Assembly: GCA_049964795.1 (NCBI GenBank)
Contig: JBMFWY010000018.1
Span: 1-14,137, forward strand
Source of the DNA: Candidatus Micrarchaeia archaeon
Lineage (GTDB): Archaea > Micrarchaeota > Micrarchaeia > Micrarchaeales > Micrarchaeaceae
DNA length: 14,137 bases
Reading direction: 5' to 3'
This document shows positions 1-14,137 of the stretch, one piece after another. The notes under the pieces were generated by a model, which was not told where the DNA came from, did not search any database, and saw only the letters and a list, made by a program, of their open reading frames with translations. Position 1 is the first letter of the stretch. Every line of letters starts with the position of its first letter. Both the position numbers and the translations under genes were made by a program.

Positions 1-44
1 AGGCCTTTTCGAAAAGGTGTTTAACCTTTTTTTGATAATTCAAT

Positions 45-483
45 ATGACGCGCATGCATACGCAAATAAAGCAAAATGCAAAAGCCCCGTCTACAATGAA
101 GTACCTGATGACCTACGGCTGGAAGATATTCATAATATCAGTTGTTCTTGGTGCTTTGTTTCAGTCAATTTTAATAATTTATCAACAAGTTCTGACTTTT
201 TCAACAAAGCCACCTAGGAACCTGACAAATTATAAATCTTTTCTTCGTCGTTAAATACAATCCCTACAGCAGGGTTGTTTTCTCTCTTTCAACGGTAAAC
301 CCCTACAGAGAGTAGGAAAAAGTAATAACATGAATATAGCGATCATAAATACAGACCCGGCACCCCATTGCATAGTATCCGCTCAACGGTAATGCCAACG
401 ACTATAGCGGCAATGGCAACAATGGTCAGGCAACAGGAGTAATCTATGTTTCAAACTGGTATTCTGGCTACACGCCACCGTAA
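45..483 (+). pseudogene. Degenerate class III signal peptide (pilin-like) / LamG-like surface protein gene
   Basis: The N-terminus KAPSTMKYLMTYGWKIFIISVVLGALF resembles the Micrarchaeota-type KAQSAMEYLMTYGW-hydrophobic motif. There is an in-frame TAA at 252-254, a +1 shift near 366 and a TAG at 373-375 (probably TGG). Positions 376-483 encode YPLNGNANDYSGNGNNGQATGVIYVSNWYSGYTPP*, a LamG-associated C-terminal motif. Confidence 0.7.
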
Positions 484-617
484 CTTATACTTTTTATTCT
501 TATTAAAACTCTGAATCATGAATTTATGTAAAGAGAGTATAGAAAGCGCTGTGCTTTTATCTCCTATCAAAATACGCACTCTCTTTGAATTTGAATGCTT
601 ATCAAACACCAAGCGGT

Positions 618-2144
618 TCAGAAAAAGTGGACTGCAAACCACCTTATTGCCTTCTTTATCCAGATCCTAGTTCCGCTTGTGTTCTTCTTTATATCCTTTA
701 TCATAGACCTGTAAAGGATCTTCTCCTGCGGGTCAAGCTTCCCTTCCTTTACTATTTGCTGCTTCTTTCCATCTACTACCTGCGTTTCCGTCACGCTTAT
801 TACATCTTTCTTTACCATGCTATACCATTCATCAAGCGTGCTTCCGCTCATGTCCTTGTCCTTTAATATAGCCAGCATGTCTGACATGTTAAGCCTCCTC
901 TCCTTGTTGTACTTGTGCTCATGCAGAAGAGGCCTCATTGCCGCTTTGTCGCATATCCTCTCTATGTCTGCAGGCGTATATCCCATAGTTGCTCTTGCAA
1001 GCCTTCCATAGTTCAGTCTGCCTTTAGGCTTGTTTCTTGTATAAAACTTGAAAAGCTCTACTCTCTCGCGATATTTAGGCGGAGGTATGTAAATGCTGTC
1101 TCCAAATCTTCCGCTTCTCTTTAGGGCGGGGTCTATGTCCCAAGGCTGGTTTGTTGCCCCTATGACGAATATCCCTTCAGGGTTTGCCTCAACGCCGTTC
1201 ATTTCAGTAAGAAACTGGTTCACTGCCAGCCTTATGGAAGAGCTTTCGCCCTGCGGGCTACCGCCGCCCCTCTTTATGCCAAGCGCATCCAGTTCGTCAA
1301 AAAATATTATACATGGTATATTTTCTCTTGCCTGCTGGAATATAGCATGCAAGTTCTTCTCGGTGTTGCCCGTATACATGTCCACGATTTGGTTTATCCT
1401 AGCTATTATTACATTAGCCCCTGCCTCTCCTGCTATTGCGTTTACCATGTATGTCTTGCCTACTCCTGGCGGTCCGTACATTAGCAGGCCTACCCCTAGC
1501 TTCTTCCCATATTTCTTGAAGAGTTCAGGATGCTGTATTGCAAGCACAACATTGTCATACAAGTATTCCTTTACCTTCTTTGAGCCTATTACGCTGTCGA
1601 ATTTCAAATTTGACTTGTAAAATGCAACCTTCTTTATCTGGCCCTCTTCTATTATGTCCTTCTCTTCTTCCTTTCCCTTTTTGTAAGTCTGGTTTTTTTT
1701 AGGGGTGCTTATTTCTACTTCTTCTTCCTTGCTTGTTTCGTCGGTATTTATGTGCATCTTCATGTCTATTTCTTCAAGCTTCTTTTTTGCTTCTAAAAAG
1801 GCGGGATTGTTGTTCAATGACCTTTCATACCAGTACCTTGCGCCTATCAAGTCATTTCTTGCCTCCGCAATATCTCCCATCAAAAATGGCGCATCATGGC
1901 TGTTCGGCTGAAGCTCTATTACTTTCTCAAGGTCATGCATTGCGTTTATGGGCTCATTCAGCACTTTTTCAGTGAGCGCCCTGTTAAAATAAGCATCAGC
2001 GTAGTCGCTTTTTATCTCTATTGCTTTGGTATACTCATCTTTTGCCTCTTCGAAGTTGCCTTCTTGAAAGAAAGAATTGCCTTGTCTCCAGTGGTCTTTC
2101 GCCTGCTCTTGTTGTGTTTTCTGCTCCTCTCCTTCCTCTGCCAT
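618..2144 (-). CDS. TPR-repeat AAA+ ATPase (single AAA module, CDC48/Vps4-related)
   Basis: About 3 N-terminal TPRs (e.g. ADAYFNRALTEKVL), an acidic/Lys linker, Walker A GPPGVGKT, pore loop MYTG, Walker B IIFFDE and SRH ATNQPWDIDPALKRSGRF. Confidence 0.9.
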   Translation of the reverse strand: MAEEGEEQKTQQEQAKDHWRQGNSFFQEGNFEEAKDEYTKAIEIKSDYADAYFNRALTEKVLNEPINAMHDLEKVIELQPNSHDAPFLMGDIAEARNDLIGARYWYERSLNNNPAFLEAKKKLEEIDMKMHINTDETSKEEEVEISTPKKNQTYKKGKEEEKDIIEEGQIKKVAFYKSNLKFDSVIGSKKVKEYLYDNVVLAIQHPELFKKYGKKLGVGLLMYGPPGVGKTYMVNAIAGEAGANVIIARINQIVDMYTGNTEKNLHAIFQQARENIPCIIFFDELDALGIKRGGGSPQGESSSIRLAVNQFLTEMNGVEANPEGIFVIGATNQPWDIDPALKRSGRFGDSIYIPPPKYRERVELFKFYTRNKPKGRLNYGRLARATMGYTPADIERICDKAAMRPLLHEHKYNKERRLNMSDMLAILKDKDMSGSTLDEWYSMVKKDVISVTETQVVDGKKQQIVKEGKLDPQEKILYRSMIKDIKKNTSGTRIWIKKAIRWFAVHFF

Positions 2145-2186
2145 ATTCTCATTTTCTTTTATTGATTACGTGTAATTCTCTAATAT

Positions 2187-2633
2187 TTATAATTTTTGTT
2201 TGCTCGAATTTCCGTTTTCATCAGCAGCGTCAAGGAACTTGTTGAGCTCCTTGTCAACTCTGCTTATGCCTGGAGTCTCCCTCGGCACATTGTTAAATTT
2301 TATATTGAAAAATTTTGAGGCGAGCTTTGAAGCTTCATAATACAGATCCTTGAGGTTTCCTGACCTCACTTTGTATCCTTTGCCAAGCTGCCCTATTATA
2401 AGTGTGCTATCCGAGAACAACTCTATCTCTATATTTTTGGGGTCATTGTGGCTTGCACACCATTCTAGCGCCTTTATTACCGCCATGTATTCCGCATAAT
2501 TGTTCGTCTTTATTCCGTTGTAGAAGACGTCTTTTGCGATTAGTTTGCCTTCTTTATATATTTCATAACCAGAGGCGCTTTTGCCCGGGTTGCCACGCGA
2601 TGCGCCATCTGTATATATTGTCAGCTTCTCCAA
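2187..2633 (-). CDS. rnhA: Ribonuclease HI
   Basis: Motifs IYTDGASRGNPG, TNNYAEY, FSDS and NVPRE...VD. The probable start is TTG at 2633, preceded by a GGTGA RBS; the ORF track extends to 2681. Confidence 0.9.
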   Translation of the reverse strand: MEKLTIYTDGASRGNPGKSASGYEIYKEGKLIAKDVFYNGIKTNNYAEYMAVIKALEWCASHNDPKNIEIELFSDSTLIIGQLGKGYKVRSGNLKDLYYEASKLASKFFNIKFNNVPRETPGISRVDKELNKFLDAADENGNSSKQKL

Positions 2634-2883
2634 AGTTTTCACCTGGTCCAGAACACATGGAAATGTATATTTTGCCGTCAACTGTTAGTTGCGCAGAGCT
2701 TAATCTTTTGCCTATTATTTTTTCTTAGCTTGTTTTTAAAGCGTTATGCTTGTGTAGTTAATCTATTTTTATATGTTATACTAAACTTATACATGATTGA
2801 TTAATACTTTTGATTAATATTTGCTGCATGACAATTCCGCAATTGCTTGCGCTAGCAGGTTTGGAAATTTGCAGGTCGGTAAA

Positions 2884-3573
2884 ATGGAAGCGCTAATATT
2901 GGCAGGAGGTTTTGGTAAAAGGCTTAGGCCAATCACAGAAGAAGTGCCGAAACCCCTGGTGCCTATAGCGGGCAAACCTATTCTTGGCTGGCAATTGGAA
3001 TGGTTATTGGAAAACAACGTAGATTCAATAATCGCAGCTGTAGGTTACAAGAAAGATCAAGTAATAGAATACCTGAAAAAGAGCTGCAAGGCTCTGGGGC
3101 TGGAGTTAAACTACGTGGAAGAAAGCAAGCCTCTAGGTACTGGCGGCGCGCTTAAAAATGCAGAAAGCACAGTAAGCGGCAAAGCATTCTATATGGTAAA
3201 CGGGGATATAATCACAAACATGCCTCTTCACAAGCTTTCCCTAGATGGCGCATTGGCTTCTATTTCTTTGGTCCCTATGCGCAGCCCTTTTGGGATAGTT
3301 GTTGCTGAACACGGGAAGGTGCTGAGTTTTGAGGAAAAGCCGCTGCTAAAAGATTACATGATCAATGCAGGTGCATATCTTCTTGACAGGAAAATATTCG
3401 ACTACGCCCCTCAAAGCGGAAGCATTGAAAAAGATGTTTTTGAAAAGCTGGCTCCAAAAGCGCTGTTGAACGCAACAAAATTTTATGATATCTATTGGAA
3501 GTCTATAGATTCAATAAAGGATATGGAAGAGGCGAGCAAGGAACTTTTAGAAAAGCCCCTGTTCTGGGCATAA
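2884..3573 (+). CDS. NDP-sugar synthase / nucleotidyltransferase (mannose-1-P guanylyltransferase-like, no hexapeptide domain)
   Basis: Motifs LAGGFGKRLRP, PKPL, PLGTGGAL, VNGD, FEEKP and INAGAY. ATG at 2884. Confidence 0.9.
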   Translation: MEALILAGGFGKRLRPITEEVPKPLVPIAGKPILGWQLEWLLENNVDSIIAAVGYKKDQVIEYLKKSCKALGLELNYVEESKPLGTGGALKNAESTVSGKAFYMVNGDIITNMPLHKLSLDGALASISLVPMRSPFGIVVAEHGKVLSFEEKPLLKDYMINAGAYLLDRKIFDYAPQSGSIEKDVFEKLAPKALLNATKFYDIYWKSIDSIKDMEEASKELLEKPLFWA

Positions 3574-3615
3574 GGCATGGGGTCAAAACATCACACAGCA
3601 CGCGACCTTACATAT

Positions 3616-3630
3616 GCAAAGGTTTAAAAT
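3616..3630 (+). promoter_or_regulatory. BRE-TATA promoter of tRNA-Lys
   Basis: GCAAAGG-TTTAAAAT; the TATA starts 34 nt upstream of tRNA position 1. Confidence 0.65.
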
Positions 3631-3656
3631 AAATTTTGAGCAATATATCTTGCAAC

Positions 3657-3763
3657 GGGCCCGTAACTCAGCATGGCCAGAGTGGTGGGCTTTTAACCCA
3701 TCAGTCGTGGGTTCAAAATGCGCTTCTTTTAATAGGGAAGCCTTGAAACTCCCACCGGGCCCG
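3657..3763 (+). tRNA. tRNA-Lys(UUU) with a 32-nt intron at position 59/60 (3718-3749)
   Basis: Acceptor GGGCCCG/CGGGCCC, D stem ACTC/GAGT, anticodon loop CTTTTAA, T stem GTGGG/CCCAC. The T-loop TTCAAA|T is interrupted by an intron forming a BHB/BHL motif (TTCA/TGAA central helix). No encoded CCA. Confidence 0.93.
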
Positions 3764-3894
3764 TAATTATCCATATATTTATGCAAATTCAGCTTGGCAC
3801 GCGTCTCGGCTGTTTCCCTTGCGCTCGCCTTTCTTACAGTATTAAATACCTTTCTGTGATAATATTTGCTTGCTGACGTTTGTTTAGAAACTAT

Positions 3895-4029
3895 GCCAGG
3901 GTGGCGGAAACTGGTAACGCGTACGCCTGGAGTTGCATTCGCATACTTGTAAGCGTATGGCTCCTCGGAGCCTTCTGGGTTCAAAATAAGCTTTTGTGCA
4001 AAAAGTTTATGAATATCCCAGCCCTGGCG
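3895..4029 (+). tRNA. tRNA-Ser(GGA) with two introns: 37/38 (3933-3951) and 59/60 (3986-4015)
   Basis: Acceptor GCCAGGG/CCCTGGC with G discriminator, anticodon stem TACGC/GCGTA, GGA at 3929-3931, long variable arm GGCTCC/GGAGCC, T stem CTGGG/CCCAG. The second intron forms a strict BHB. Confidence 0.92.
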
Positions 4030-4073
4030 TGGTTCTGCAAACCTCTAGCGCTAAGTCAAAAGCAGGTGCTTTA

Positions 4074-4628
4074 TTGGCAGATCAACAGCATGTTCATAAA
4101 GACGAAAAGGAAAAGAGAGCCACCTCCATAGTGAGGATAGCAGGCAAGGATATAGATGGAAAGCTTGGCGTGGAGCGCGCGCTCCAGTCCGTAAAGGGCT
4201 TGGGCCACAACATGTCCCATGCGCTTGCTGGAGTCATAGAATCCAAGCTTTCAATACCAAAAGATACACCCATAGGTTCGCTCGAAGAAGACAAAATTGG
4301 CATGATAGAAAAAGCGATAAAGGACCCTGTGCAATACGGAATACCCAAATACATGCTCAACAGGCGCAAGGATTTTGAATCTGGCAAGGACATGCATGTA
4401 GTAGGCAGCGAGCTGATTTTTGCAATGAGGCAAGATGTCGGCAGAGATGTTTCAATGAGAACCTGGAGAGGCTTCAGGCATCAGTATGGTCAGAAGGTGC
4501 GCGGACAGCACACAAGGTCTACAGGCAGGCAGGGTGCTACGGTGGGAGTCATGAAAAAGACTGTCGCAGCAGCCCAGAAGGCCGCAGCTTCCGGAGGCAG
4601 GGGCGGCTCATCCGAATCAAAGAAGTGA
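4074..4628 (+). CDS. rps13: 30S ribosomal protein S13 (uS13)
   Basis: IVRIAGKDIDG, LNRRKDFESG, WRGFRHQYGQKVRGQHTRSTGR. TTG start at 4074 after a GGTG RBS; the ORF-track start at 3996 lies inside the tRNA. Confidence 0.95.
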   Translation: MADQQHVHKDEKEKRATSIVRIAGKDIDGKLGVERALQSVKGLGHNMSHALAGVIESKLSIPKDTPIGSLEEDKIGMIEKAIKDPVQYGIPKYMLNRRKDFESGKDMHVVGSELIFAMRQDVGRDVSMRTWRGFRHQYGQKVRGQHTRSTGRQGATVGVMKKTVAAAQKAAASGGRGGSSESKK

Positions 4629-4632
4629 TTGA

Positions 4633-5214
4633 ATGGGGGCACCAAGGCTTAATAGGAGGAAGTATGAAAAGCCAAAGAACATGTGGAACAGCCAGAGGAT
4701 CGCTGCGGATCATGCGCTCATGCGAGAGTATGGCCTCAGCAGCATGAAAGAAATATGGAAGGTGCAGACTGAGCTCAGCAGGATAAGGCGCAATGTAAGG
4801 ATACTGCTTTCGCAGGAGCAGAAAAGTGTAGAAGAAAGCATAATAAGCAGGCTTGTGAAGCTCGGCGTGCTTCAATCCGGAGCAAATCTCGATTCTCTTC
4901 TTGATATTGACGACAGGAGGTTCCTTGAAAGGCGCCTGCAGTCAATCGTGTTCAGGAAAGGCCTTGCAAAGTCTATGAGGCAGTCAAGGCAGCTAATAAC
5001 GCACGGTTTTATAGCCGTGAATGGCAAGAGGGTAACTATTCCAGGATATCTTGTAAGTGTAAACGAAGAAGCAGGCATACAATATTACAAGCCCATAGAC
5101 ATAAATGCTGGCGCCTCCGTGCATTCTGTTTCCGGATCAGAGAACAGCAAGTCTTCAGAAAATGCTGGTCAGGCATCTGAGGCTGAAAGTGAACAGGAAG
5201 GCAGCGCTTCATAA
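4633..5214 (+). CDS. rps4: 30S ribosomal protein S4 (uS4)
   Basis: YGLSSMKEIWK, FLERRLQSIVFRKGLAKSMRQSRQLITHGFIAVNG; Ser/Glu-rich C-terminal tail. Confidence 0.96.
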   Translation: MGAPRLNRRKYEKPKNMWNSQRIAADHALMREYGLSSMKEIWKVQTELSRIRRNVRILLSQEQKSVEESIISRLVKLGVLQSGANLDSLLDIDDRRFLERRLQSIVFRKGLAKSMRQSRQLITHGFIAVNGKRVTIPGYLVSVNEEAGIQYYKPIDINAGASVHSVSGSENSKSSENAGQASEAESEQEGSAS

Positions 5215-5260
5215 AAATATTTATCTTAAGATCAAAAAAGTTGAGAGTTGAGGTGCGATA

Positions 5261-5752
5261 ATGGCAAAAAAAGTTGCAACAAAACCTGCAGAGCAAAAGC
5301 AGCAGGTAAAGAAAAAAGAGATCTCCTATGAGGAAAAGGCGATGGAAGCTCCGCGCATGGCTCCAAAAGCCGAGAGGGTAGCCGTAGCTCATATTTATTC
5401 TTCAAAGAACAACACACTTATTACTCTTACAGACCTTAGCGGTTCGGAGACAATTGCCATAGGGAGCGGAGGCATGATGGTAGATGCTGATTCTCAGCAA
5501 GGATCCCCGTATGCTGCAATGCAAGCTGCATACAAGGTTGCTGCTGAAGCGAAGGATAAGGGAATAACAAATATAAACGTGGAAATAAGAGCTCCGGGAG
5601 GTCATGGTATGAAAACCCCAGGACCTGGAGCGCAGGCAGTGCTCAGAGTTTTGGCAAGAAGCGGTCTCAGGATAAATAAGATAGAGGATGTCACGCCTAT
5701 ACCCACTGACACCACAAGAAGGCCAGGAGGAAGGCGCGGAAGAAGGGTCTGA
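5261..5752 (+). CDS. rps11: 30S ribosomal protein S11 (uS11)
   Basis: [50 protein letters not shown]; GAGGTG RBS. Confidence 0.97.
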
Positions 5753-5844
5753 TTTCCCTTCCTTTTTATTTTTAAGAATACTTCTTTATTTTCTATTTAA
5801 ATTTTAGCTAACTCTTCCAGATTTTTTCCATTTTTACTTTACTA
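5753..5844 (+). terminator. Pyrimidine/oligo-T-rich archaeal terminator region after rps11
   Basis: Multiple T5-T6 runs directly after the rps11 stop, between convergent genes. Confidence 0.55.
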
Positions 5845-6513
5845 CTACTTTTTCTTAAGCACTGCGAAAAGATGCAGTGTATCATAAGGCTCCAGATAAA
5901 TCTTCTCCTTCACCTCAAAAACTTCTTTCAAGGTCAAAAGCGCCTCTGCATATACTTCTTCAGGGTTTTTGGCTATGTCTATGCTCTGGGATTTTATAAC
6001 AAAATAGGCAGTCCCATTTTTTTTCAAGAATCTCGAGTTTGCAAGCAGAATCTCCGACTGTTCCTTGGCGGAGACATCTTGGTAAAGCACATCGCAGCTC
6101 TCCTCCTTTATATAGGAGCCGTATTTTTCGGGATACCTTGCGTCTTCTAGTACTGGAAGTATGTTGCTTCTTTTCTCGCACACTTTTATCAGTTCCCTCA
6201 TGCTTCTCTCTGAAAATTCGACTGCATATATCCTGCCCTTTTTCACTATGTCACTGACATGGCTGACAGTCGTGCCTGTTGAAGCACCGAGATAAAGCAC
6301 GTTGCTGTCTTCGCGAAAATCAAAACCTTTCAGCCCTTTCAGCAATGCTGCAGCCAGCTTGCTCCTGTAAGGATTCCAAAGCCTGTACTCTATTCCGCTC
6401 TCGCTGACTAAGCTTTCATTATATACCTTCGAGCCTTTGGCGAGATTGCGCGTAGCAAGCTTGCCGTCTACGAGGAATACTCCTTCAAAAAGTCTTTTTA
6501 TTTCGGCAGGCAT
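5845..6513 (-). CDS. flpA: Fibrillarin-like rRNA/tRNA 2'-O-methyltransferase
   Basis: EYRLWNPYRSKLAAALLKG, VLYLGASTGTTVSHVSDIV, YAVEFS, LEDARYP, YQDVS, IKSQSID. Probable ATG at 6513 with a GTGA RBS. Confidence 0.95.
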   Translation of the reverse strand: MPAEIKRLFEGVFLVDGKLATRNLAKGSKVYNESLVSESGIEYRLWNPYRSKLAAALLKGLKGFDFREDSNVLYLGASTGTTVSHVSDIVKKGRIYAVEFSERSMRELIKVCEKRSNILPVLEDARYPEKYGSYIKEESCDVLYQDVSAKEQSEILLANSRFLKKNGTAYFVIKSQSIDIAKNPEEVYAEALLTLKEVFEVKEKIYLEPYDTLHLFAVLKKK

Positions 6514-6698
6514 TTCAATCACGCGCTGTGCTTTTTTATATGGCAAAGCTTTCCTGCAATATGCCAATTGTGCATGCAGGAGGAGTATACGCTCCAAATG
6601 CTCATATTCATAAAGTTTTTGCGCATATTCTTTATTAGTTTGCTTTGTTGCCGCGATGATTGTGCTTGCATCGCGCATCCTTGCTTAGGCGATCGACT

Positions 6699-8972
6699 AT
6701 GGCTCTTGAAATTGTGCTGAACAAGATAATTGAAGAAGTATTGCCTATGCTGGGCAGTGCCTCAAACGAGGATGATCTCCTTGGCAAATTTTCCTCCTCT
6801 CTTTCCACCCTTTTTGGCATAAGCAGTGTAAATGCAATCGGAACCTACAAGTCGAAAGTCCAGGGCTCCTTATTCGAGTATGTACTTAATACAAAAAAGG
6901 TTTATGTAGACAACCAGCTCAGCGAGTATTCGGCATTTCCTGAGCTTATAGAATACAGGAACAGGGGGTACAAAAGCTGCTCGGTGCTTCCTGTTGTTTC
7001 TAACGGCAAGGTTGTAACACTTCTCGAAATGCTTTCAGAACAGGAAAACAAGTTCACAGAAGATCTTGTAAACAGCATAGCATTTGCGTCGTACCTATTT
7101 GGTTTTGCCCTCATGTATAAGCTTGAAAGCTCAAGGAACGTAAAGCTTGCAGGGTATTTTGACGCTGCATTCAATTCGCCATTGCCCCAAATGCTTGTTT
7201 CTAAAGACGGTTCTATAATAAAATTCAACAAACCTGCAATAAAGCAATTCGGCGTTTCGCAAGGGGCCAACCTTAACGCCTTGGGCATAAGCATCGACAA
7301 GGTCATTCAATCTGCAAAGCAGCATGTTCCGTTCGCCGCTTCCCTAAAATCTTCGCAGGGACAAGCGATTTATTCTTTCTACTCGGAAAATGTGAGTGAC
7401 AGCACATTTTACCTGCTCGCTTCAGACAGGACAAGCAAGGATACACTTTCTTCAATTGCTTTGGCTGCCTCAGGCACGGACCGTGTATGTATGCTAATGC
7501 TTGACAGCTCCTTTTCAATAGAGGAGATCCTGGGCAATGCCGAACACATGTTCAATTATCCAGGAGAGATGCTTTACGGCAAAAGCTTTCTGGAGCTTTT
7601 GGATCAGCGCGACAGGGAATCATTCGAGAAAAGCGCCAAGGCGCTCGGACCTACAGCTTCTACCGAAAGGATAGTGGACTTGCCCCTGGGCAAATTTGGC
7701 AGCATGCACGTGCATATTGCGCTTTCGAAAATGCCGCTCGGCTATGCAGTGTTGCTTGCAAGCGACAATGCCGAAAAATATGTAAAGGACATAAGCTCGA
7801 TGCTGGAGGACTTCATTTCACTTTCGCAGGATCTAATTCTTAGCGTAGACCAATTTGGCTACATCAAGGGAAGCAACATGTCTGTAGAATCTGTGCTAGG
7901 ATACAAGAAGGAAGAGCTCACAGGCAAGGATGTCAAGTCAATGTATATAGAATCTGAGGTGCTCGACAGGGATATTGCTTATGTAAGAAACGGGGGCAAG
8001 GTCGACGGATCTTACGTGACGCTGCGCAAGAAGAGCGGCGAGCTCATACCCGCAATCCATTCTCTGCGCCTCATGCGTGGTTCTTCGGAAAGCGATTTAA
8101 GCTACCTATTTGTAATACATGAGCTTCAGACAAAGCGGACCTTGTCAGATCAGGAGTCGAAGCTCAAGTCGCAGGAAAGCGAAATAAAGAGGCTGAGGAT
8201 GGTGAGCGATCTAAAGTCGCAATTCATCTACAACATTTCGCACGAGCTCAAAACGCCTCTCACTGCGATAAAAGGTTTTGCAAAGCTTCTTTATGGAGGT
8301 GAATTTGGTGCGCTGACCGATGAGCAGAAAGGCTATCTCAACACAATATTGGACGAATCTGATAGGCTGCTGCTTATCATACAGCAGGTTTTGGATGCGT
8401 CGAAGCTGGAAGCCAACAAGGTAAAGCTGGACTTGAAAGAGGTGGACTTCAAGGTGATGCGCAACAACCCAAGTATAAACGCGCTTGAAGAATCCGCAAA
8501 AGGTAAAGGTCTCTCCTTCTCGTGGACTGTGGACTATGACGTTCCAACAATAATAGCAGATCCAAACAGGCTTATACAGGTTTTTGTAAACTTGATAGGC
8601 AATTCAATAAAGTTTACAGAGAAAGGTGGCATAGACGTCCATATAATACGCAAGAGCAGAAAGAGAGTAGAGTGCAAGGTTTCAGATACGGGCATAGGCA
8701 TAAGCGATGATGACAAGAGGAAAATATTCAAGAAATTCTACCAGGCGCCCAAGAAAGATCTTGTCAAGCAGGATGGCGCAGGAACAGGCTTAGGGCTTTC
8801 AATAACAAAGGATATAATTTCTCTTCACGGCGGCAAGATAACGTTCGAGTCGCAGCAGGGCAAGGGCACTACGTTCTCCTTCATACTTCCTATAAGGCCC
8901 CGCGAAAAGAAAAAGGAAAAGCAGCAGCCGCAGCAGGTCGAAAGCCCCGCACCCGCCAAGCCTTCAGCATAG
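6699..8972 (+). CDS. Cytoplasmic sensor histidine kinase (GAF, multiple PAS, HisKA, HATPase_c)
   Basis: GAF-like segment (SCSVLPVVSNGKVVTLLEM) and PAS-like repeats (KDGSIIKFNKPA; NAEHMFNYPGEMLYGK; NMSVESVLGYKKEELTGK). H-box SHELKTPL, N-box VNLIGNSIKF, G1 DTGIGI, G2 GTGLGL. No clear TM segment. Confidence 0.93.
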   Translation: MALEIVLNKIIEEVLPMLGSASNEDDLLGKFSSSLSTLFGISSVNAIGTYKSKVQGSLFEYVLNTKKVYVDNQLSEYSAFPELIEYRNRGYKSCSVLPVVSNGKVVTLLEMLSEQENKFTEDLVNSIAFASYLFGFALMYKLESSRNVKLAGYFDAAFNSPLPQMLVSKDGSIIKFNKPAIKQFGVSQGANLNALGISIDKVIQSAKQHVPFAASLKSSQGQAIYSFYSENVSDSTFYLLASDRTSKDTLSSIALAASGTDRVCMLMLDSSFSIEEILGNAEHMFNYPGEMLYGKSFLELLDQRDRESFEKSAKALGPTASTERIVDLPLGKFGSMHVHIALSKMPLGYAVLLASDNAEKYVKDISSMLEDFISLSQDLILSVDQFGYIKGSNMSVESVLGYKKEELTGKDVKSMYIESEVLDRDIAYVRNGGKVDGSYVTLRKKSGELIPAIHSLRLMRGSSESDLSYLFVIHELQTKRTLSDQESKLKSQESEIKRLRMVSDLKSQFIYNISHELKTPLTAIKGFAKLLYGGEFGALTDEQKGYLNTILDESDRLLLIIQQVLDASKLEANKVKLDLKEVDFKVMRNNPSINALEESAKGKGLSFSWTVDYDVPTIIADPNRLIQVFVNLIGNSIKFTEKGGIDVHIIRKSRKRVECKVSDTGIGISDDDKRKIFKKFYQAPKKDLVKQDGAGTGLGLSITKDIISLHGGKITFESQQGKGTTFSFILPIRPREKKKEKQQPQQVESPAPAKPSA

Positions 8973-9016
8973 CAGACTTTTTTGGGCCTCAAATGCAGCG
9001 GCCGTTCGCCTACTTT

Positions 9017-10063
9017 TCACACTACTTCTATGCCGCACGCGTTGCCTACCTTTAGCGAATCTTCATAGCCTTTGTAAAGTGCCGTATAATTGCTGTCTAG
9101 GAATACTCCGCTCAACGTAATATTTTCTGTAGTCATTGAGGAAATGTTCACCTCTATTGACAGTGCCTTGCCTGTAGTATGCGGAGAGTGCGAGTAAGTG
9201 TAATAGGTGTAGAAATACAGGTAAGGGCTCTTGGTGCTGGAGATGCTACCATTAAGTTTGTAAGGCACCAATGCGCTTTGGTTTTGGTATGTTGCAGGGC
9301 CTGACGGGCTTGTGCCGTAATATGCCTTGTAGCTGGAGTTGTAAAGTGTGCTAGAGCACGCAGTAGTATTGCTGTACGCCGAGGAATAGTTTAGCATAAG
9401 CGGATACCATATGCTGCTCTCCAATGCCTGCATAACTTTTGTGTCGTTGCTGGGCTGCGAAGCCTTGACTGTTGTCGTGGCTGCAATTGTGGTAGTTGGG
9501 GTTGTCGATTTTGCATTTGTGCCTGTGGCGTTTGCGCTTTCATTGGTTATTATTATTTTTATTCCTGAAGAGGAGTTTTGGGCTCCTGGAAGCATGCTCT
9601 TGTATTGCACTTCGGCATAGTCTATTGCGACTCCCAGCGCCGGATCTATGGGTATAAGCGTAACGTTTGCCACATTAGCAGAAAGGCTGTTAAGCCTTAT
9701 TCCCAAGCTTGCATATTGTGTGCCGAAGCCTATGTGCGTAGTATTGCCTAGGTTTGCCTTAACAAGCATAGTGTCACTTGTAAATATTGGCAGCTTTGAA
9801 ACGTAAAATACTGCTTCATTGCCCGAATGCAATGCAAGGCTTATTGAGAAATAAACTCCATGCATATCTACAAGAACTGGCGATTGTGATACTTGGACAG
9901 CTCTTTCCGAGCTCAAGTTTAAATAGCCGTTTCCCTGCAAGCCGATCGCAGCCATCGCCGCGATTATTATTACAATAAGCAAGTAAACAACATACTTTGC
10001 AGTTTTATGCCTCCTTTTTGGAGGAATCTGCCTTCCAGGGTAAGACATCGACACGCTTTCCAT
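9017..10063 (-). CDS. Membrane-anchored surface (glyco)protein of unknown function
   Basis: Basic N-terminus followed by a TM helix YVVYLLIVIIIAAMAAIGL, a Thr-rich linker (STTPTTTIAATTTV) and many N-x-S/T sequons. The start is likely ATG 10063 (or 10048), with a TATA-like TTTATTTA about 40 nt upstream. Confidence 0.75.
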   Translation of the reverse strand: MESVSMSYPGRQIPPKRRHKTAKYVVYLLIVIIIAAMAAIGLQGNGYLNLSSERAVQVSQSPVLVDMHGVYFSISLALHSGNEAVFYVSKLPIFTSDTMLVKANLGNTTHIGFGTQYASLGIRLNSLSANVANVTLIPIDPALGVAIDYAEVQYKSMLPGAQNSSSGIKIIITNESANATGTNAKSTTPTTTIAATTTVKASQPSNDTKVMQALESSIWYPLMLNYSSAYSNTTACSSTLYNSSYKAYYGTSPSGPATYQNQSALVPYKLNGSISSTKSPYLYFYTYYTYSHSPHTTGKALSIEVNISSMTTENITLSGVFLDSNYTALYKGYEDSLKVGNACGIEVV

Positions 10064-10211
10064 ATAACCATCGCAAACGCGTAGCAGCTCTTTTTGAGTA
10101 TGATTAAATAAAGCTTTTAACCTTTGCCTCTGCGCTCTCTTTTGCTGCTTTTTCTCAACGCCCAAGCAAAATTATAATATTGTTGTGTGAGTAGTTAGTT
10201 TAGGTGATCAT

Positions 10212-11402
10212 GTGCCAGAAGACAGCTTCCTACCGGATGTTTTGTCAATAATAAATGACAAGCAGCAAGTTACGTACAGCGAGCTTAGCGACATAGCTTT
10301 CAGCAGGAACATACCAAAGGACAAGCTGGACAGCGCACTTTCTAGCCTTGAAAGTAACAAGATGATCGCCTCGAGGAGCATAGGCGGCATGCTTACATAT
10401 TATACCCTTGAGCAAGACGCTATAAGCAAGGTGCTTATAGTAGAGGACGACAAAAGCATAAACAAGCTCATGGCGCTTTCAATAGGCAAGGGCTTTGAGG
10501 TAAAGCAGATATATGACGGCGGAGAAGCAATGCCTGCAGTAAGAAGCTACAAGCCGCAGCTTGTCATACTTGATCTAATGCTGCCTCACAAGGACGGCCT
10601 TGACATATGCCAAACAATAAAGGAAGATCCCGAGACAAGCGGCACTATAGTAATACTTGTAAGCGCGATGGATCCTACAAGCAACAGGTTCAAAGGGATA
10701 AAATATGGGGCAGACTATTACATAAAGAAGCCTTTTGACCCAAGCGAGCTGAAAAGCCTTGTCACTATCTTCCTGAAGAAGAAAGGGAAAAGGTTTGATC
10801 CTCTTGTGGATCTGCCAAACGAAGAGAGAATTTCAAACGCTGTGAGCAAGTCTATAGATTCAGGAGAGGATTACGCGATAGGCGCATTGAGGATCACTAA
10901 TCTGGGCTCATATGCGAAAAGATTTGGGGAGAAATCCGCAATGGTAATAATAAGGCTTGTCTCGCAGCTTTTGCAAGACGCAATAAACAGCAAGGCTACG
11001 GGCGTTTTTGTAGGGTTCATGAACACAGAAGACTTCATAGTAGCTGGCAGGCGAAGCGATGTTTCTGCTGCAGTAGAAAATGTAAAGCAGGAGTTCAATG
11101 CTGTAATGCCTTTCATACTGCAAGATGAGGGCTATAAGATGATAGATCTCAATATAGAGAGCCTTTTCGAATCCAACGAAGTGCCCAAGCTGTCGCTCGA
11201 ATACAGCGAGCTCGAGAAAAGCGAGATAAAGAAAAGGGTTGATGAGCTTAACAAGGAGAAGGTCGCAACATCAAACGGCGAGATAGGCGCGTATACCTAC
11301 GAGGAGCTGCAGAAACTTTTTGGCAGAGAGGATTTTGACATAAAGATAACGCGTGACGGCGACTCGGTGCGCCTTCATGTAAGCAAGACGGGCGAAAACT
11401 AA
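10212..11402 (+). CDS. Response regulator: N-terminal wHTH-like, REC, degenerate GGDEF-like domain, small C-terminal domain
   Basis: REC motifs LIVEDD, LVILDLMLP, VSA and KPF are intact. They are followed by DPLVDLPN...RFG...FVGFMNTEDFIV, matching the GGDEF scaffold without the catalytic motif. GTG start with a GGTGA RBS. Confidence 0.85.
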   Translation: MPEDSFLPDVLSIINDKQQVTYSELSDIAFSRNIPKDKLDSALSSLESNKMIASRSIGGMLTYYTLEQDAISKVLIVEDDKSINKLMALSIGKGFEVKQIYDGGEAMPAVRSYKPQLVILDLMLPHKDGLDICQTIKEDPETSGTIVILVSAMDPTSNRFKGIKYGADYYIKKPFDPSELKSLVTIFLKKKGKRFDPLVDLPNEERISNAVSKSIDSGEDYAIGALRITNLGSYAKRFGEKSAMVIIRLVSQLLQDAINSKATGVFVGFMNTEDFIVAGRRSDVSAAVENVKQEFNAVMPFILQDEGYKMIDLNIESLFESNEVPKLSLEYSELEKSEIKKRVDELNKEKVATSNGEIGAYTYEELQKLFGREDFDIKITRDGDSVRLHVSKTGEN

Positions 11403-11974
11403 TGCTGTACAAAACAATAAAATCTTCAGCCGCTAAGCGCAGCGCGAGGTCTCAAGCTGCATTGGATTTCATGGTATCCTATGGCATAGCAATAATGATA
11501 ATCACCATAGCTCTTTACATAATCTTTTCTCTCGGTGTTTTCAATCCAAAGCTGGCTTCCCCGCAGTGCACTCCCTCTCCTTCCTTTATATGCCTTTCAT
11601 ATTCGATAAACAAAACCTCTTCGTTTTCAATTATATTATCCCAATCAACAGGTGGCACCATGTACATAACCGGTGTCGCGTGCTCTAGCGCCGTGAATTC
11701 GACTTCAAACATACCTGCATACGGCAATGTGCATGTTCTACCATATTCGCTGGCTCCTCAATACTATCCGAACAACGCACTGCAAAACGGTGCATACCTT
11801 TACAGTGACAACGAAACACTTCTCCAAGTATTTTGCTACAATAGCAAAGGAAAGGCTACAAGTTCATTGGGTTATACTTTTACAGGCTATCTTTGGATAA
11901 ACTATACATTTTCAAACCTGCCTTCAGTACATTACATAAGCAAAGTCGCCTCGTTCACCGCAAGCTATACTTGA
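11402..11974 (+). CDS. Class III signal peptide protein (archaeal type IV pilin-like)
   Basis: Basic leader then RS|QAALDFMVSYG-hydrophobic helix-LGVFNP, followed by Cys pairs (CTPSPSFIC). The ATG overlaps the upstream TAA (TAATG). Confidence 0.82.
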   Translation: MLYKTIKSSAAKRSARSQAALDFMVSYGIAIMIITIALYIIFSLGVFNPKLASPQCTPSPSFICLSYSINKTSSFSIILSQSTGGTMYITGVACSSAVNSTSNIPAYGNVHVLPYSLAPQYYPNNALQNGAYLYSDNETLLQVFCYNSKGKATSSLGYTFTGYLWINYTFSNLPSVHYISKVASFTASYT

Positions 11975-12014
11975 GTCCAAAGTGTAGAAATGCTTTGCCC
12001 CGCGTTGCAGTAGC

Positions 12015-12065
12015 AATGCAATAGGTATCTATTGCATTTATAAAGTTATTTTGCCAAATAACTTT
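12015..12065. promoter_or_regulatory. Two perfect inverted repeats flanking a TATA box (putative operators)
   Basis: AATGCAATAG-gtat-CTATTGCATT (12015-12038) and AAAGTTATTT-tgcc-AAATAACTTT (12042-12065), with TTTATAAA at 12037-12044. Confidence 0.7.
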
Positions 12066-12087
12066 TATTGAATTAAGGTGTTGCAGC

Positions 12088-12927
12088 ATGAGCGCAAGAA
12101 GGGTTGCTTGGCTTTTTGTCTCGTTTGCAATGCTTGCTGTTATGTTTGCCCAGCTCTCTTTCCCCTCTTACGTAAAAGTCATTGAGCCTTATGGCGCTGT
12201 TGTGCATCAAGGTGGAAGCGTATACCTTGGCAATATCGGACCAGGCCAAAGCTTCTATATTGTCATCTCTCCAAATACTACCTCAAGCTCCGGCAAAATG
12301 GTAGAGCTAGGCTGGAACAAGCTTGTAGTGACAGGGCTCAGCGGCTGGGTCGTTGAAAACTCCTCACTTTACTCCTCTGCTCCTTCAGTAGAGATAACTC
12401 CCCCTTCATACACTCCGTTTGGAGTCTATGGATTCAATGTAACGGCCATAAATATAGGAAACTACTCTGGTTTGGGAAACCTTACCTTTAAGGCTTACAT
12501 CAATGTTACTTCAAAAGTATTCAGCTTTAACGCTTCGCCTACAATAGCCAACGCAGGCATAGGCGTTCCCGCATACATTAGCATAAGGATAAACAACACT
12601 GGCGTTTCAGACAATCCATTTGTAATAAGCGCTTCGGGGCTTCCAGGATTCAACGAAAGCGACATAGTTATTGCCCAACATAGCACAGCGAGAAGCTTCC
12701 TATTCCCGATTTACGAGGATACTCCAGGCACGTGGCATGCAATGCTGAAGATAAGCTCTTTGACTAGCCCTTCCATATATGAAACAAAGAACATTACTTT
12801 AATAGTAAAGCCGAGCATGGAGAACGAGCTTCTTGCGCTAGGCAAAGGGACAATAATCTACCCTGTGCTCTATGCTCCTGCATACGCCATACAGTATTTC
12901 ATAGGTTTGCTTTTCAAGGGCAAGTAA
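12088..12927 (+). CDS. Secreted/membrane beta-sandwich-like protein with N-terminal signal and C-terminal anchor
   Basis: Hydrophobic N-terminus, two beta-rich Ig-like segments (GVYGFNVTA; INNTGVSDNPF; PGTWHAML), a hydrophobic C-terminus ending FKGK, and N-glycosylation sequons. GGTG RBS. Confidence 0.75.
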   Translation: MSARRVAWLFVSFAMLAVMFAQLSFPSYVKVIEPYGAVVHQGGSVYLGNIGPGQSFYIVISPNTTSSSGKMVELGWNKLVVTGLSGWVVENSSLYSSAPSVEITPPSYTPFGVYGFNVTAINIGNYSGLGNLTFKAYINVTSKVFSFNASPTIANAGIGVPAYISIRINNTGVSDNPFVISASGLPGFNESDIVIAQHSTARSFLFPIYEDTPGTWHAMLKISSLTSPSIYETKNITLIVKPSMENELLALGKGTIIYPVLYAPAYAIQYFIGLLFKGK

Positions 12928-13083
12928 CAATATCTCCGCCCTGTCTTTTTGCAAGCATCTATTGCCCCATCAAGATTGCGCTTTGCAGTTGTGTATGCAG
13001 AAATAAAAAATATGGGAAAAGATAGAAATGTATAAAAGCATGTGCATCTTAAAAATGCGGTATCAATCTTTTTGCTGATTTGA

Positions 13084-13794
13084 ATGCCCTCAAAAAAATC
13101 CGAGAAGGCAGCCTCCTCTTACGCAATAAGGACTGCATCCTTGCTGGATCTCGTAAGGAATGCATTGAGCAGGGCAGGCCCCTCCGCGTATATTTTTGCA
13201 GTAAGGCAAGGTAACAAGTACCGGCTAGTGCTTCCAGGCGAAAAGATAGGCAGCTTGAAAATAGTCTACTACTTTGACACGGACAAGATTGCAAAATTCG
13301 CAATCTACAGCCCATTCGGCGAAAGCGAAAAGATCGAGATGAAAAACAGCATCGACGGCGAAGAGCACGACTACAAATCTTATAAAATGCAGATTATGGA
13401 ACTTCTTAACAACCCCTTTGAAGGCTATTTTTCTGCAAAATCCAACGCTTCTTCTAAAAAAGCAGGGGGCGCAAACCCTATTATAATGAAAGCGAAAGAT
13501 TACGATTCCCTGGTGCGGCAATCGCTGTCTTTTGCCGCTGAAGATGAAAAGATGGGTAAAATATATTATTTTGAAAGCAACGGCAAAGGGTTTCTTTGCT
13601 CGATAGAGGATTTCAACGATGAAGAAGGAACAATATTGTATGCTGAAGCAGAAAATAAAAATATATTTAACTTTATGCGGTACAACTATATCAGCAATAG
13701 AGTGGAATCGGTAAACTCTTTAGAAGGAGCTGCTTATACCCTTTTGGCTGTGGTAAGGCTTGCAGAACCGTTTCCGTTTTTTAAGCCCGAATAG
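13084..13794 (+). CDS. Hypothetical protein with an internal two-domain duplication
   Basis: 236-aa ORF whose halves share SLLDLVRNALS / DYDSLVRQSLS and IMELLNNPF / VVRLAEPF. The stop TAG lies within tRNA-Asn. Confidence 0.75.
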   Translation: MPSKKSEKAASSYAIRTASLLDLVRNALSRAGPSAYIFAVRQGNKYRLVLPGEKIGSLKIVYYFDTDKIAKFAIYSPFGESEKIEMKNSIDGEEHDYKSYKMQIMELLNNPFEGYFSAKSNASSKKAGGANPIIMKAKDYDSLVRQSLSFAAEDEKMGKIYYFESNGKGFLCSIEDFNDEEGTILYAEAENKNIFNFMRYNYISNRVESVNSLEGAAYTLLAVVRLAEPFPFFKPE

Positions 13795-13856
13795 CTCAGT
13801 GGTAGAGCGACTGGCTGTTAACCAGTAGGTCGCAGGTTCAATCCCTGCTTCGGGCG
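13785..13856 (+). tRNA. tRNA-Asn(GUU), intronless
   Basis: Acceptor GCCCGAA/TTCGGGC plus G, D stem GCTC/GAGC, ACTGG-CTGTTAA-CCAGT, GCAGG-TTCAATC-CCTGC. No CCA. Confidence 0.96.
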
Positions 13857-13871
13857 CACGGATTTTCTGCT

Positions 13872-14137
13872 TTACTGTGGTGTTGCGGATTCGCCGTTCT
13901 GTCTTTTCCTAGGCTTTGTATCAAATTCGTTTATTGGAAGTATGAAATAGAATTTGCTCCCTTTTCCGAGTTCGGATTCCACTCCTATCTTACCCTTGTG
14001 GAGGAGGATTATCTTTTTGGCTATTGACAGCCCGAGACCTGTGCCAGATTTTGGTGGCGAGATAAGGTCCTTTCTAGTGGTTGCCTGGTAAAATTCCCTG
14101 AAAAGCTTTTTTCTGTCTTCCTGGCTTATGCCAATGC
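13872..14137 (-). CDS. C-terminal HATPase_c part of a second sensor histidine kinase (partial, runs off the window)
   Basis: Manual translation: [71 protein letters not shown]...TPQ*. Not in the ORF track because it has no start in the window. Confidence 0.9.

Follow-up and report, generated by a model that had tools for sequence, protein, structure and literature searches.

What can a response regulator do, in an archaeon, with a degenerate copy of the diguanylate cyclase (GGDEF) domain? The question is raised by an open reading frame (ORF) of 396 amino acids with a GTG start, located in a stretch of 14,137 nucleotides from a Candidatus Micrarchaeia archaeon (contig JBMFWY010000018.1, positions 1 to 14,137; hereafter the window). 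A preliminary description had placed such a domain after the receiver (REC) domain of the encoded protein and had read it as a catalytically dead output module domesticated from a bacterial cyclase. The analyses presented here identify the C-terminal domain as a true homologue of the GGDEF domain of diguanylate cyclases, predict that it is catalytically dead, and indicate that the protein is probably a phosphorylation-switched transcription factor of a pilin operon. The parts of the gene, which is translated from 10212 to 11399, are the following.

10212..11402, + strand: response regulator gene, with a predicted winged helix, REC and a predicted inactive GGDEF-like domain.
10212..10409, + strand: N-terminal winged-helix domain, residues 1-66, predicted from the topology of the AlphaFold (AF2) model.
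10425..10778, + strand: REC receiver domain, residues 72-189 (Pfam PF00072).
10770..10817, + strand: near-invariant linker FLKKKGKRFDPLVDLP, residues 187-202, from the invariant columns of alignment A2.
10794..11333, + strand: GGDEF-like (palm) domain, residues 195-374, from structural alignment.
10890..10943, + strand: beta1/alpha1 segment RITNLGSYAKRFGEKSAM, which replaces D-x-D-x-F-K-x-x-N-D-x-x-G-H-x-x-G-D (alignment A3).
11022..11036, + strand: NTEDF at the GG(D/E)EF position, residues 271-275, in the register given by Protein Data Bank (PDB) entry 6eib and alignment A3.
11340..11381, + strand: beta-hairpin at the C-terminus (DIKITRD...VRLHVS, residues 377-390), following the final domain helix.

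The strings on which the preliminary description relied (DPLVDLPN, YAIGALRITNLGSYAKRFGEKSAMVIIRLVSQLLQDAI, FVGFMNTEDFIVA, QEFNAVMPFILQDEGY and VPKLSL) were all present in the translation, and the interval that it marked, 10797-11220, corresponded to residues 196-336, after REC. The location of the domain was correct and its limits were not: structural alignment extended it over residues 195-374 (10794-11333), with the hairpin following to residue 390.

Homology was examined in the family as a whole. A word-index search returned 387 homologues, nearly all of about 400 amino acids, and a scan of species genomes gave 239 loci with a relative, of which 80 were kept for locus comparisons. The C-terminal domains of 72 loci and of the window protein, without REC, were aligned to give A2, whose 73 rows have a mean column identity of 61%. 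When each domain was scanned separately with Pfam, the GGDEF family PF00990 was matched by 53 of the 73 at E<=1, the best at 3.2e-7, and every other family by two of them at most; among the 120 homologues listed, precomputed PF00990 was present only in P0058. The REC-free A2 profile gave 200 matches at E<=1e-3 among 1.84 billion representative proteins. Below the family members and fragments stood proteins at E 1e-12 to 1e-4, and 27 of the 29 proteins P0143-P0171 (A2-profile E 1.1e-12 to 1e-5) carried PF00990 above the cut-off, the two exceptions being a REC-only fragment and a repeat protein. Against the PDB sequences, the same profile found the GGDEF chain 6eib first (E 0.065). HMMER aligned vGflnsdefvi with cGRVGGEEFII of that chain, which put NTEDF in the register of the GGDEF motif, as had been proposed.

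Structure prediction gave the same answer. The comparison by AlphaFold and Foldseek, which had been set beforehand as the means of refuting a palm fold, recovered the GGDEF fold, and the refutation failed. The model of the domain alone (predicted local distance difference test score, pLDDT, 83.2; predicted template modelling score, pTM, 0.81) contained the predicted beta-alpha-alpha-beta-beta-alpha-beta palm core. All 35 of the rows listed by Foldseek were GGDEF-domain proteins (best E 2.6e-4). In an exhaustive VIA-align comparison with 48,161 chains, ranks 1-32 were all GGDEF (Z 9.9-7.1, 119-138 residues aligned, root-mean-square deviation 3.4-4.2, model range 9-188), followed by family-A DNA polymerases and class III cyclases at Z<7. 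The whole-protein model (pLDDT 71.6) consisted of a winged-helix-like N-terminus, REC, a low-confidence linker and an alpha-beta-alpha-alpha-beta-beta-alpha... domain, and its best Foldseek matches were WspR, PleD and DgcR over 239-332 columns.

The two strands of the C-terminal hairpin corresponded to E191-196 and E199-204 of the domain model. In A3, ITRD of the hairpin aligned with the IDRR end of GGDDF-type proteins, and I379 and R381 were invariant. An assignment of the last 45 residues to a separate small domain was considered and rejected: these residues aligned with the C-terminal helix and the I-D-R-R strand of the GGDDF types, and the structural alignments of the domain extended to model residue 188.

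Three results weigh against the identification. Taken singly, the window protein scored 13.6 bits against PF00990 (E 0.059, profile positions 3-92 of 161; 13.5 bits in the genome scan), below the gathering score of 23.8 bits, and by that threshold it does not belong to the Pfam family. A single-sequence phmmer search of the PDB with the C-terminal 211 amino acids gave three matches, all at E>0.4 and none of them GGDEF. The best Z of about 10 stood only moderately over the typical background of the tool, 7-8. The homology was settled by the uniform structural top list and the independent sequence statistics together.

That the likeness is spurious, or that the gene is a bacterial contaminant of an archaeal bin, is extremely unlikely. 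Such a reading could draw on the Pfam score of the window protein and on a survey by Galperin et al. (2018, PMC5847659), which, in the sentence it gives to these proteins, left contamination open. It is refuted by the homology established with the Pfam scan, Foldseek, VIA-align and the A2 profile, and by contig context, synteny and distribution. The contig encodes fibrillarin, the archaeal ribosomal proteins S13, S4 and S11 and a GAF-PAS-HisKA-HATPase kinase (Pfam); the named relatives of the regulator are Micrarchaeota; and the same neighbours recur in up to 79 of 80 related loci, including that on the complete chromosome of Ca. Micrarchaeum sp. A_DKE (L049). The domain was found in 188 of the 401 sampled genomes of the phylum and in 164 of the 177 of the order to which the window belongs. 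By family, the counts in the order were 87/93 (f1), 76/83 (f2) and 1/1 (f3), and several families elsewhere had none, among them f4 (0/30) and f9 (0/76). These tallies, like those for canonical GGDEF proteins below, include one unpublished genome (G029), which had a regulator match. The regulator family is single-copy and nearly universal in the order. The gene is lineage-wide, syntenic and archaeal, not contamination, and its order-wide presence and conserved neighbours remove the caveat of 2018.

Two genomes of one genus (G009:C6:5897-6526 and G072:C8:3173-3802) contained a regulator-like copy with one in-frame TGA; G009 also had an intact copy. Pseudogene formation, recoding or an error of sequencing could account for the TGA-bearing copies.

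The combination of domains is not new. In one sentence, Galperin et al. (2018, PMC5847659) describe a REC-inactivated-GGDEF regulator from two proteins of Ca. Micrarchaeum acidiphilum. The likeness to the protein of the window, from the same phylum, is one of description. The fusion of REC to an inactivated GGDEF domain in Micrarchaeota has thus been known since 2018, and the headline of the preliminary description, having been in print since then, is not a discovery. What goes beyond the relevant passages of the survey is the order-wide conservation, the affinity to GHIGGDDF-type proteins, the pilin operon and the family-wide residue losses, none of which was found in the literature. Among publications on a response regulator, pili or a histidine kinase in Micrarchaeota, that survey alone was relevant. 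The co-culture paper on Ca. Micrarchaeum harzensis (PMC8975820) makes no mention of a response regulator, two-component, histidine kinase, pili or pilin, or type IV; the paper on Mia14 (PMC5498576) mentions pili, and neither a two-component system nor GGDEF.

The residues expected of an active cyclase were located in the register of A3, in which the A2 family is aligned with GGDDF-type proteins. Their roles were assumed from the PleD literature, with the guanine-binding Asn and Asp at N335 and D344 and the I-site by PleD numbering. In the window protein, the position of the beta1 metal-binding Asp is R227; none of the 73 orthologues has D there, and 62 have K or R. The guanine-binding Asn position is A235 (N in 0 of 73) and the guanine-binding Asp position is M244 (D in 0 of 73). 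The first G of the motif is replaced by N271 (no G in any row) and the second by T272 (G in five rows), and the GG pair is intact in none, while G268, F269 and F275 are present in all 73. The preliminary description had listed the beta1 Asp, the residues of ND..GH..GD and the GG pair as lost, and the column counts extend each of these losses to the family. Thus the GG(D/E)EF turn (or A/S-G-D/E-E-F), the metal Asp and the guanine-binding Asn and Asp of active cyclases were all lacking. The I-site Arg position, nine residues before the motif, is A262 (R in one orthologue) and the I-site Asp position, six residues before it, is V265 (D in none), so that no RxxD I-site was seen at these two positions in the 73 orthologues.

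From these columns the domain is predicted to be catalytically dead, and the loss appears to be old and family-wide. Invariant columns remain throughout: the linker FLxKKGKxFDxLxDLP, R248, S251, Q252, Q255, D256, Q304, D305, Y361, Y363, E365 and R381. An old, family-wide loss combined with strong overall conservation argues for a new, selected, non-catalytic role.

Catalysis of some other kind (nucleotidyl transfer, or an ATPase or GTPase activity like that reported for the degenerate GGDEF domain of GdpP), carried out by the acidic residues of N(S/T)(D/E)(E/D)F, is very unlikely. Acidic residues do persist at the D/E-E positions, 59 of the 73 orthologues keeping D or E as third residue of the motif and 45 of the 73 keeping E or D as fourth, which tells against a domain devoid of activity. 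One orthologue also matched PF24898 (GGDEF_GdpP) weakly, at E 0.057, and a variant GGDDF motif can be active, as described for Geobacter GSU1937, a protein of different architecture, in the part of that paper concerned with the motif (PMC8835794). On the other side, K or R stands in place of the beta1 Asp in 62 of the 73 orthologues, and 28 of the 73 have V, Q, M, S, A, I or G as fourth residue of the motif, so that no catalytic set is conserved. The GG turn, which holds the phosphates in cyclases, is absent from all 73.

The nearest relatives of the domain indicate where it may have come from. Among the best 150 matches of the A2 profile, 93 carried GGDDF, mostly as (V/I)GHIGGDDF, and none carried GGDEF or GGEEF; together with A3, this bears out the resemblance to the REC-GGDDF subfamily that had been pointed out. 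The pattern of the GGDDF type in A3 is NPLTxLPGN ... DLDNFKxYNDxYGFxxGD ... FVGHIGGDDF ... IDRR, and the linker FLKKKGKRFDPLVDLP aligns with the NPLTGLPGN segment. The best matches outside the family (E 1e-12 to 1e-4) were bacterial REC-GGDEF proteins of this GHIGGDDF type, annotated 'diguanylate cyclase' (P0143 from Chloroflexota, P0145 from Thermodesulfobacterium, P0153 from Thermodesulfobacteriota). They have in common with the Micrarchaeal family the segments NPLTxLPGN / DPLxDLP, Y..(N/A)., FVG(H/F)., F..P..Y and an I(D/T)R(R/D) end, a REC directly upstream, and Pfam coverage of about the first two thirds of PF00990. They keep DLDNFK, YND.YGF..GD and GGDDF and have no N-terminal winged helix, whereas the Micrarchaeal family has lost those residues: in the window protein DLDNFK, YNDxYGFxxGD and GHIGGDDF have become RITNLG, YAKRFGEKSA and GFMNTEDF. 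The literature on the GGDDF motif yielded nothing about the Micrarchaeal family, and the only paper found on an active GGDDF protein was that on GSU1937 (PMC8835794), as judged from its passages on the motif.

The named members of the nearest clusters were bacterial (Chloroflexota, Thermodesulfobacterium, Thermodesulfobacteriota/'Deltaproteobacteria'). The Micrarchaeal domain is closest to the bacterial GHIGGDDF type, which is usually REC-fused. By closest relatives and shared register (the NPLTxLPGN-like segment and the I-D/T-R end) it falls with that subfamily, and by its motifs it does not; the family is best described, from these alignments, as a derived sister or offshoot of the GHIGGDDF subfamily and not as a member. 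In a quick unrooted IQ-TREE phylogeny, from which 51 of 91 GGDDF rows were dropped and to which 13 rows of canonical Micrarchaeal GGDEFs were added, the Micrarchaeal regulators and divergent kin formed one group on a long branch (1.03; Shimodaira-Hasegawa-like approximate likelihood ratio test, SH-aLRT, 97), separate from both the GGDDF-type rows and the canonical Micrarchaeal GGDEFs. The tree being unrooted, bacterial import is plausible and no donor or direction is claimed. Of the proposed domestication of a bacterial cyclase, the bacterial relationship is therefore retained and the direction of transfer is not. GGDDF proteins scored 36-64 bits with the A2 profile and canonical Micrarchaeal GGDEFs at most 13.6 bits; the contrast is in part circular, A2 having also served to select the GGDDF proteins. 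As far as these scores show, the canonical Micrarchaeal GGDEFs would not be the source of the dead domain.

Two divergent relatives, P0151 (318 amino acids) and P0140 (380 amino acids), had a winged helix-REC-GGDEF-like layout with the degenerate motifs HVEENKF and GFIGDSFF. P0151, which passed the Pfam GGDEF cut-off (24.5 bits), adjoined the family in the tree on a long branch and may represent an intermediate form.

The preliminary description had also taken signalling by cyclic di-GMP (c-di-GMP) to be essentially bacterial, and this fails for the phylum. PF00990 scored above the cut-off at other loci in 146 of the 401 sampled genomes. Of 18 such canonical loci that were read, 16 had an ORF in which (G/A/S)G(D/E)(D/E)F is intact; most of these ORFs are about 195-260 amino acids long, and 15 of the 16 have RxxD upstream. 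Most of the 18 loci preserve DxD, NDxxGHxxGD, RxxD and GGDEF. In family f9, where the regulator was found in 0 of 76 genomes, 48 of 76 carried a canonical GGDEF. Short GGDEF-only proteins in metagenome-assembled genomes of DPANN archaea, and cyclase activity of archaeal GGDEFs in bacterial hosts, are reported in sections of Sidorov et al. (2026, PMC13725321), a paper in which the string 'Micrarchae' does not occur. The canonical ORFs seen here occur in the same phylum as the regulator and, like the stand-alone DPANN proteins treated in those sections, are short and GGDEF-only. They differ from the regulator in belonging to another clade (100% SH-aLRT), in their intact motifs and in scoring at most 13.6 bits with A2.

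The presence of such enzymes raises another explanation, in which the domain is a nucleotide sensor that gates the regulator upon binding GTP, c-di-GMP or a cyclic oligonucleotide supplied by stand-alone Micrarchaeota GGDEFs or by biofilm neighbours. Canonical GGDEFs are frequent in the phylum, with motifs intact in most of the loci read; both proteins occur together in 13 genomes of f1; archaeal GGDEFs have cyclase activity in bacterial test systems, according to the sections cited (Sidorov et al. 2026, PMC13725321). The lack of the I-site (a single R and no D among the 73 rows at its two positions) speaks against a sensor, as does the loss of the guanine-binding Asn and Asp from all 73 orthologues. 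PopA, PelD and SgmT, whose degenerate GGDEF domains act as c-di-GMP receptors, offer a precedent in favour; they bind the ligand via RxxD, which the regulator does not have, so it differs from this type of receptor. Moreover, no canonical GGDEF was found in this genome, in the three other sampled genomes of its genus or in 74 of the 87 regulator-bearing genomes of f1, so that the role of the regulator cannot depend generally on an endogenous cyclase. The search that had been recommended for other c-di-GMP components found no other GGDEF and no EAL, PilZ, HD_5 (HD-GYP) or MshEN domain in profile scans of this assembly, which is 91.6% complete. A sensor is accordingly considered rather improbable.

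The remainder of the protein bears on what a dead domain might do. REC matched PF00072 over residues 74-184 (82.1 bits, E 4.3e-23, above the cut-off). Its columns E78, D79, D80, D121, S151, K173 and P174 were invariant in 28 orthologues, and these are taken to include the acidic pocket, the phospho-acceptor Asp, the Thr/Ser and the Lys. REC is intact. The N-terminus, which the preliminary description had left unmentioned, had the AF2 topology H-E-H-H-E-E (H7-17, E19-21, H22-31, H36-48, E52-57, E60-65; block pLDDT 67-87). Penicillinase_R was matched by the N-termini of 4 of 28 orthologues (best 3.7e-6), giving weak support, and TrmB by the relative P0140 (1.2e-4); the N-terminus of the window protein had no match of its own to a winged helix-turn-helix family in Pfam. 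With a predicted winged helix present, the GGDEF-like domain need not be the output, and its earlier designation as such was overstated. Linker residues 189-202 had a pLDDT <50 in the whole-protein model.

WspR, PleD and DgcR, REC-GGDEF proteins with solved structures, resemble the regulator as the top whole-protein structural matches and in the intact phospho-acceptor set of REC. All three are active enzymes that possess GG(D/E)EF and an RxxD I-site, their identity to the regulator is 9-18%, and the model of the regulator has no helical stalk, such as theirs, between REC and the domain, the linker there being of low confidence. Degenerate GGDEF domains that serve as non-catalytic modules are found in PopA, FimX, LapD, PelD, SgmT and CsrD, in which the palm fold has been kept after motif loss, as in the regulator. 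None of these has a winged helix before REC, as is predicted for the regulator. The archaeal regulators LtrR and FilR1, in which a winged helix lies N-terminal to REC, have the arrangement predicted for the regulator and are expected to act in transcriptional control; they have no GGDEF-like domain and come from haloarchaea and methanogens, not from DPANN archaea (passages of Galperin et al. 2018, PMC5847659).

A scan of the 725-kb assembly (34 contigs) found one REC match, the regulator, and one HisKA match, the neighbouring kinase; the two are the genome's sole two-component system. This count agrees with Table 1 of Galperin et al. (2018, PMC5847659), in which the one complete Micrarchaeota genome has one kinase and one regulator containing a helix-turn-helix. 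The neighbours of the regulator gene are the following.

6660..8972, + strand: histidine kinase of 770 amino acids, GAF-PAS-HisKA-HATPase_c (Pfam).
9017..10165, - strand: single-pass membrane protein with a Ser/Thr-rich outer part, encoded by a divergent ORF.
10163..10211, + strand: promoter-like block, with a TATA-like A/T-rich AATTATAATA at 10170-10179 and AGGTGA at 10202-10207.
11402..11974, + strand: ORF for a type IV pilin-like protein with a putative class III signal peptide (RSARSQAALDFMVSYGIAIMII).
12088..12927, + strand: protein that begins with a hydrophobic signal segment at its N-terminus; no Pfam or NCBIfam family; tblastn match in 69/80 loci.
13084..13794, + strand: soluble protein; no Pfam or NCBIfam family; tblastn match in 58/80 loci.
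13872..14135, - strand: second histidine kinase, represented by its C-terminal 87 codons (HATPase_c at 50.6 bits) and running off the contig end.

The order and orientation of the neighbours recur across the 80 related loci in tblastn comparisons. The kinase had a match in 61 of the 80, mostly about 3.3-3.5 kb upstream on the same strand, and is presumed to be the partner of the regulator. No hydrophobic segment with a Kyte-Doolittle (KD) value >=1.8 was found in it, which makes it a cytoplasmic sensor. Its listed TTG start (6660-6678) overlaps the 5' end of a divergent fibrillarin ORF (5845-6678) by 19 bases; the true start of the kinase ORF, the fibrillarin ORF or both is probably further in. 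The divergent membrane protein (one hydrophobic segment, residues 54-72; no Pfam or NCBIfam family) was matched on the minus strand in 62 of 80 loci, at a position of about -1.1 to -1.3 kb. For the soluble protein encoded downstream (13084-13791), a protein atlas search yielded nothing usable. A kinase-like match downstream on the minus strand was seen in 4 of 80 loci, and the pilin cluster may here be flanked by two kinases. A TPR-AAA ATPase (618-2144, - strand), an RNase H (2187-2681, - strand) and a 133-amino-acid ORF of no family (3583-3984, - strand) lie upstream of the ribosomal protein genes and were next to the regulator in 0, 0 and 1 of 80 related loci, respectively.

The stop codon of the regulator (TAA) overlaps the ATG of the pilin-like gene (TAATG), and the regulator is translationally coupled to that gene. 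The link to pili that the preliminary description had ventured is borne out by this next gene, whose match was present in 79 of 80 loci. The downstream ORF begins with (K/R)(A/S/G)Q..(L/I)DF..SYG... in most of 72 related loci, a motif that we take to be an archaeal class III (type IV pilin) signal peptide. In Pfam, the pilin-like protein matched DUF7287 alone (E 0.094). The downstream pilin of one locus (L028) had a classical QSAMEYLMTYGWAILII N-terminus and 305 amino acids, the other loci having the QAALDFMVSYG type of about 185 amino acids, which suggests that one pilin has replaced another at this place in the operon. Other contigs of the genome encode three ATPases of the T2SSE type and a single A24 prepilin peptidase.

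Upstream of the regulator, AGGTGA sits four bases before the GTG start. The upstream blocks of orthologues are alike, with GCAAAGCATAATATT...GTTGATA...GGTGAC, as judged by eye, without statistics, on 41 of the 64 upstream regions extracted, and a TATA-like block with a GGTGA(C/T) element recurs among them; a promoter function is inferred for 10163-10211. In many orthologues the block reads GCAAAGCATAATATTCTTT.CGTTGATA ... GGTGAC .. ATG, and the window has AAGCAAAATTATAATATTGTTGTGTGAG. The winged helix could have its operator in the stretch that follows the TATA-like element.

These features suggest the following model. The cytoplasmic GAF-PAS kinase encoded upstream would phosphorylate D121 of REC, and phosphorylation would switch the assembly state of the regulator. 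The N-terminal winged helices would then bind DNA at the conserved promoter of their own operon, made up of the regulator, the pilin and the two conserved genes, which the regulator would control. The dead GGDEF domain would be neither an enzyme nor a classical c-di-GMP receptor and would serve as a structural or regulatory module for self-association or partner docking. The system would in this way tune the pilus or adhesion proteins used by episymbionts on their hosts. A complex prediction with two copies of the domain (A2) returned a score of 0.00 and a mark of 0.42 and speaks neither for nor against self-association.

Besides the persisting acidic residues, several points count against this model. 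Inactivity, DNA binding and target operon are all deduced, and the support for the winged helix itself is model topology (pLDDT ~67-87) and the weak Pfam matches of four among 28 orthologues. At 91.6% completeness of the genome, failure to find other c-di-GMP genes does not prove that they are missing, and 13 of the 87 regulator-bearing f1 genomes carry an intact stand-alone GGDEF. The strongly conserved polar residues R248/S251/Q252/Q255/D256 of helix alpha2 and the invariant Q304/D305 might form a site for a ligand or partner, and the dead domain would then be the real output.

This last point leads to an alternative in which the dead GGDEF domain is the true output, acting by protein contact and docking on pilus-assembly or cell-surface machinery, and the winged helix is an interaction or localisation module. 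FimX, which is linked to type IV pili, and other degenerate GGDEFs provide the precedent; the GGDEF structures of FimX and LapD were among the fold matches (3hva, 3pjx, 6pwk). Both proteins rely on an EAL domain, which the regulator lacks. The extreme conservation of the linker FLxKKGKxFDxLxDLP, R248/S251/Q252/Q255/D256, Q304/D305 and Y361/Y363/E365 would suit a contact surface, as would the coupling to the pilin gene followed by two conserved genes of no family, one of them soluble. Galperin et al. (2018, PMC5847659), moreover, argue that archaeal two-component signalling acts mostly via protein-protein interactions. Against it, the genes for the prepilin peptidase and the pilus ATPases are on contigs other than that of the regulator, and a winged helix beside REC is the usual DNA-binding layout, as in the archaeal LtrR and FilR1 (same survey, passages on these regulators). 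We regard output by protein contact as possible but unlikely. Phosphorylation-switched control of the pilin operon by the winged helix-REC-dead-GGDEF regulator is preferred: together with the identity of the domain, it is held with a confidence a little above even. The identity part alone is held to be highly probable, and the mechanism alone, against its rivals, stands at about even.

For the biology of the family, the regulator is the only response regulator of episymbiont genomes of ~0.6-1.3 Mb, and it is strongly constrained though predicted dead. Its domain appears to descend from, or to be sister to, the little-studied GHIGGDDF branch. With the 2026 report, it is seen that two kinds of GGDEF, live and stand-alone or predicted dead and fused, are common in the phylum. 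DPANN archaea are thought to hold their hosts by pili-like structures (Golyshina et al. 2017, PMC5498576, in the passage on pili). A bolder proposal, which we consider speculative and improbable, is that the sole Micrarchaeales two-component system is a host-contact switch of a pilin/adhesion operon for attachment to Thermoplasmatales, with the dead domain, derived from a bacterial GGDDF-type enzyme, serving as a nucleotide receptor or protein dock. If true, pilus expression would be coupled to stand-alone archaeal GGDEF cyclases or to signals from the host or biofilm. The feature is neither surprising to the specialist nor new in kind, and it is biologically suggestive for host attachment by DPANN archaea. 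The cultivated Ca. Micrarchaeum harzensis A_DKE carries an orthologue (L049), and a single conserved regulator before a pilin operon would offer a tractable handle on the control of attachment.

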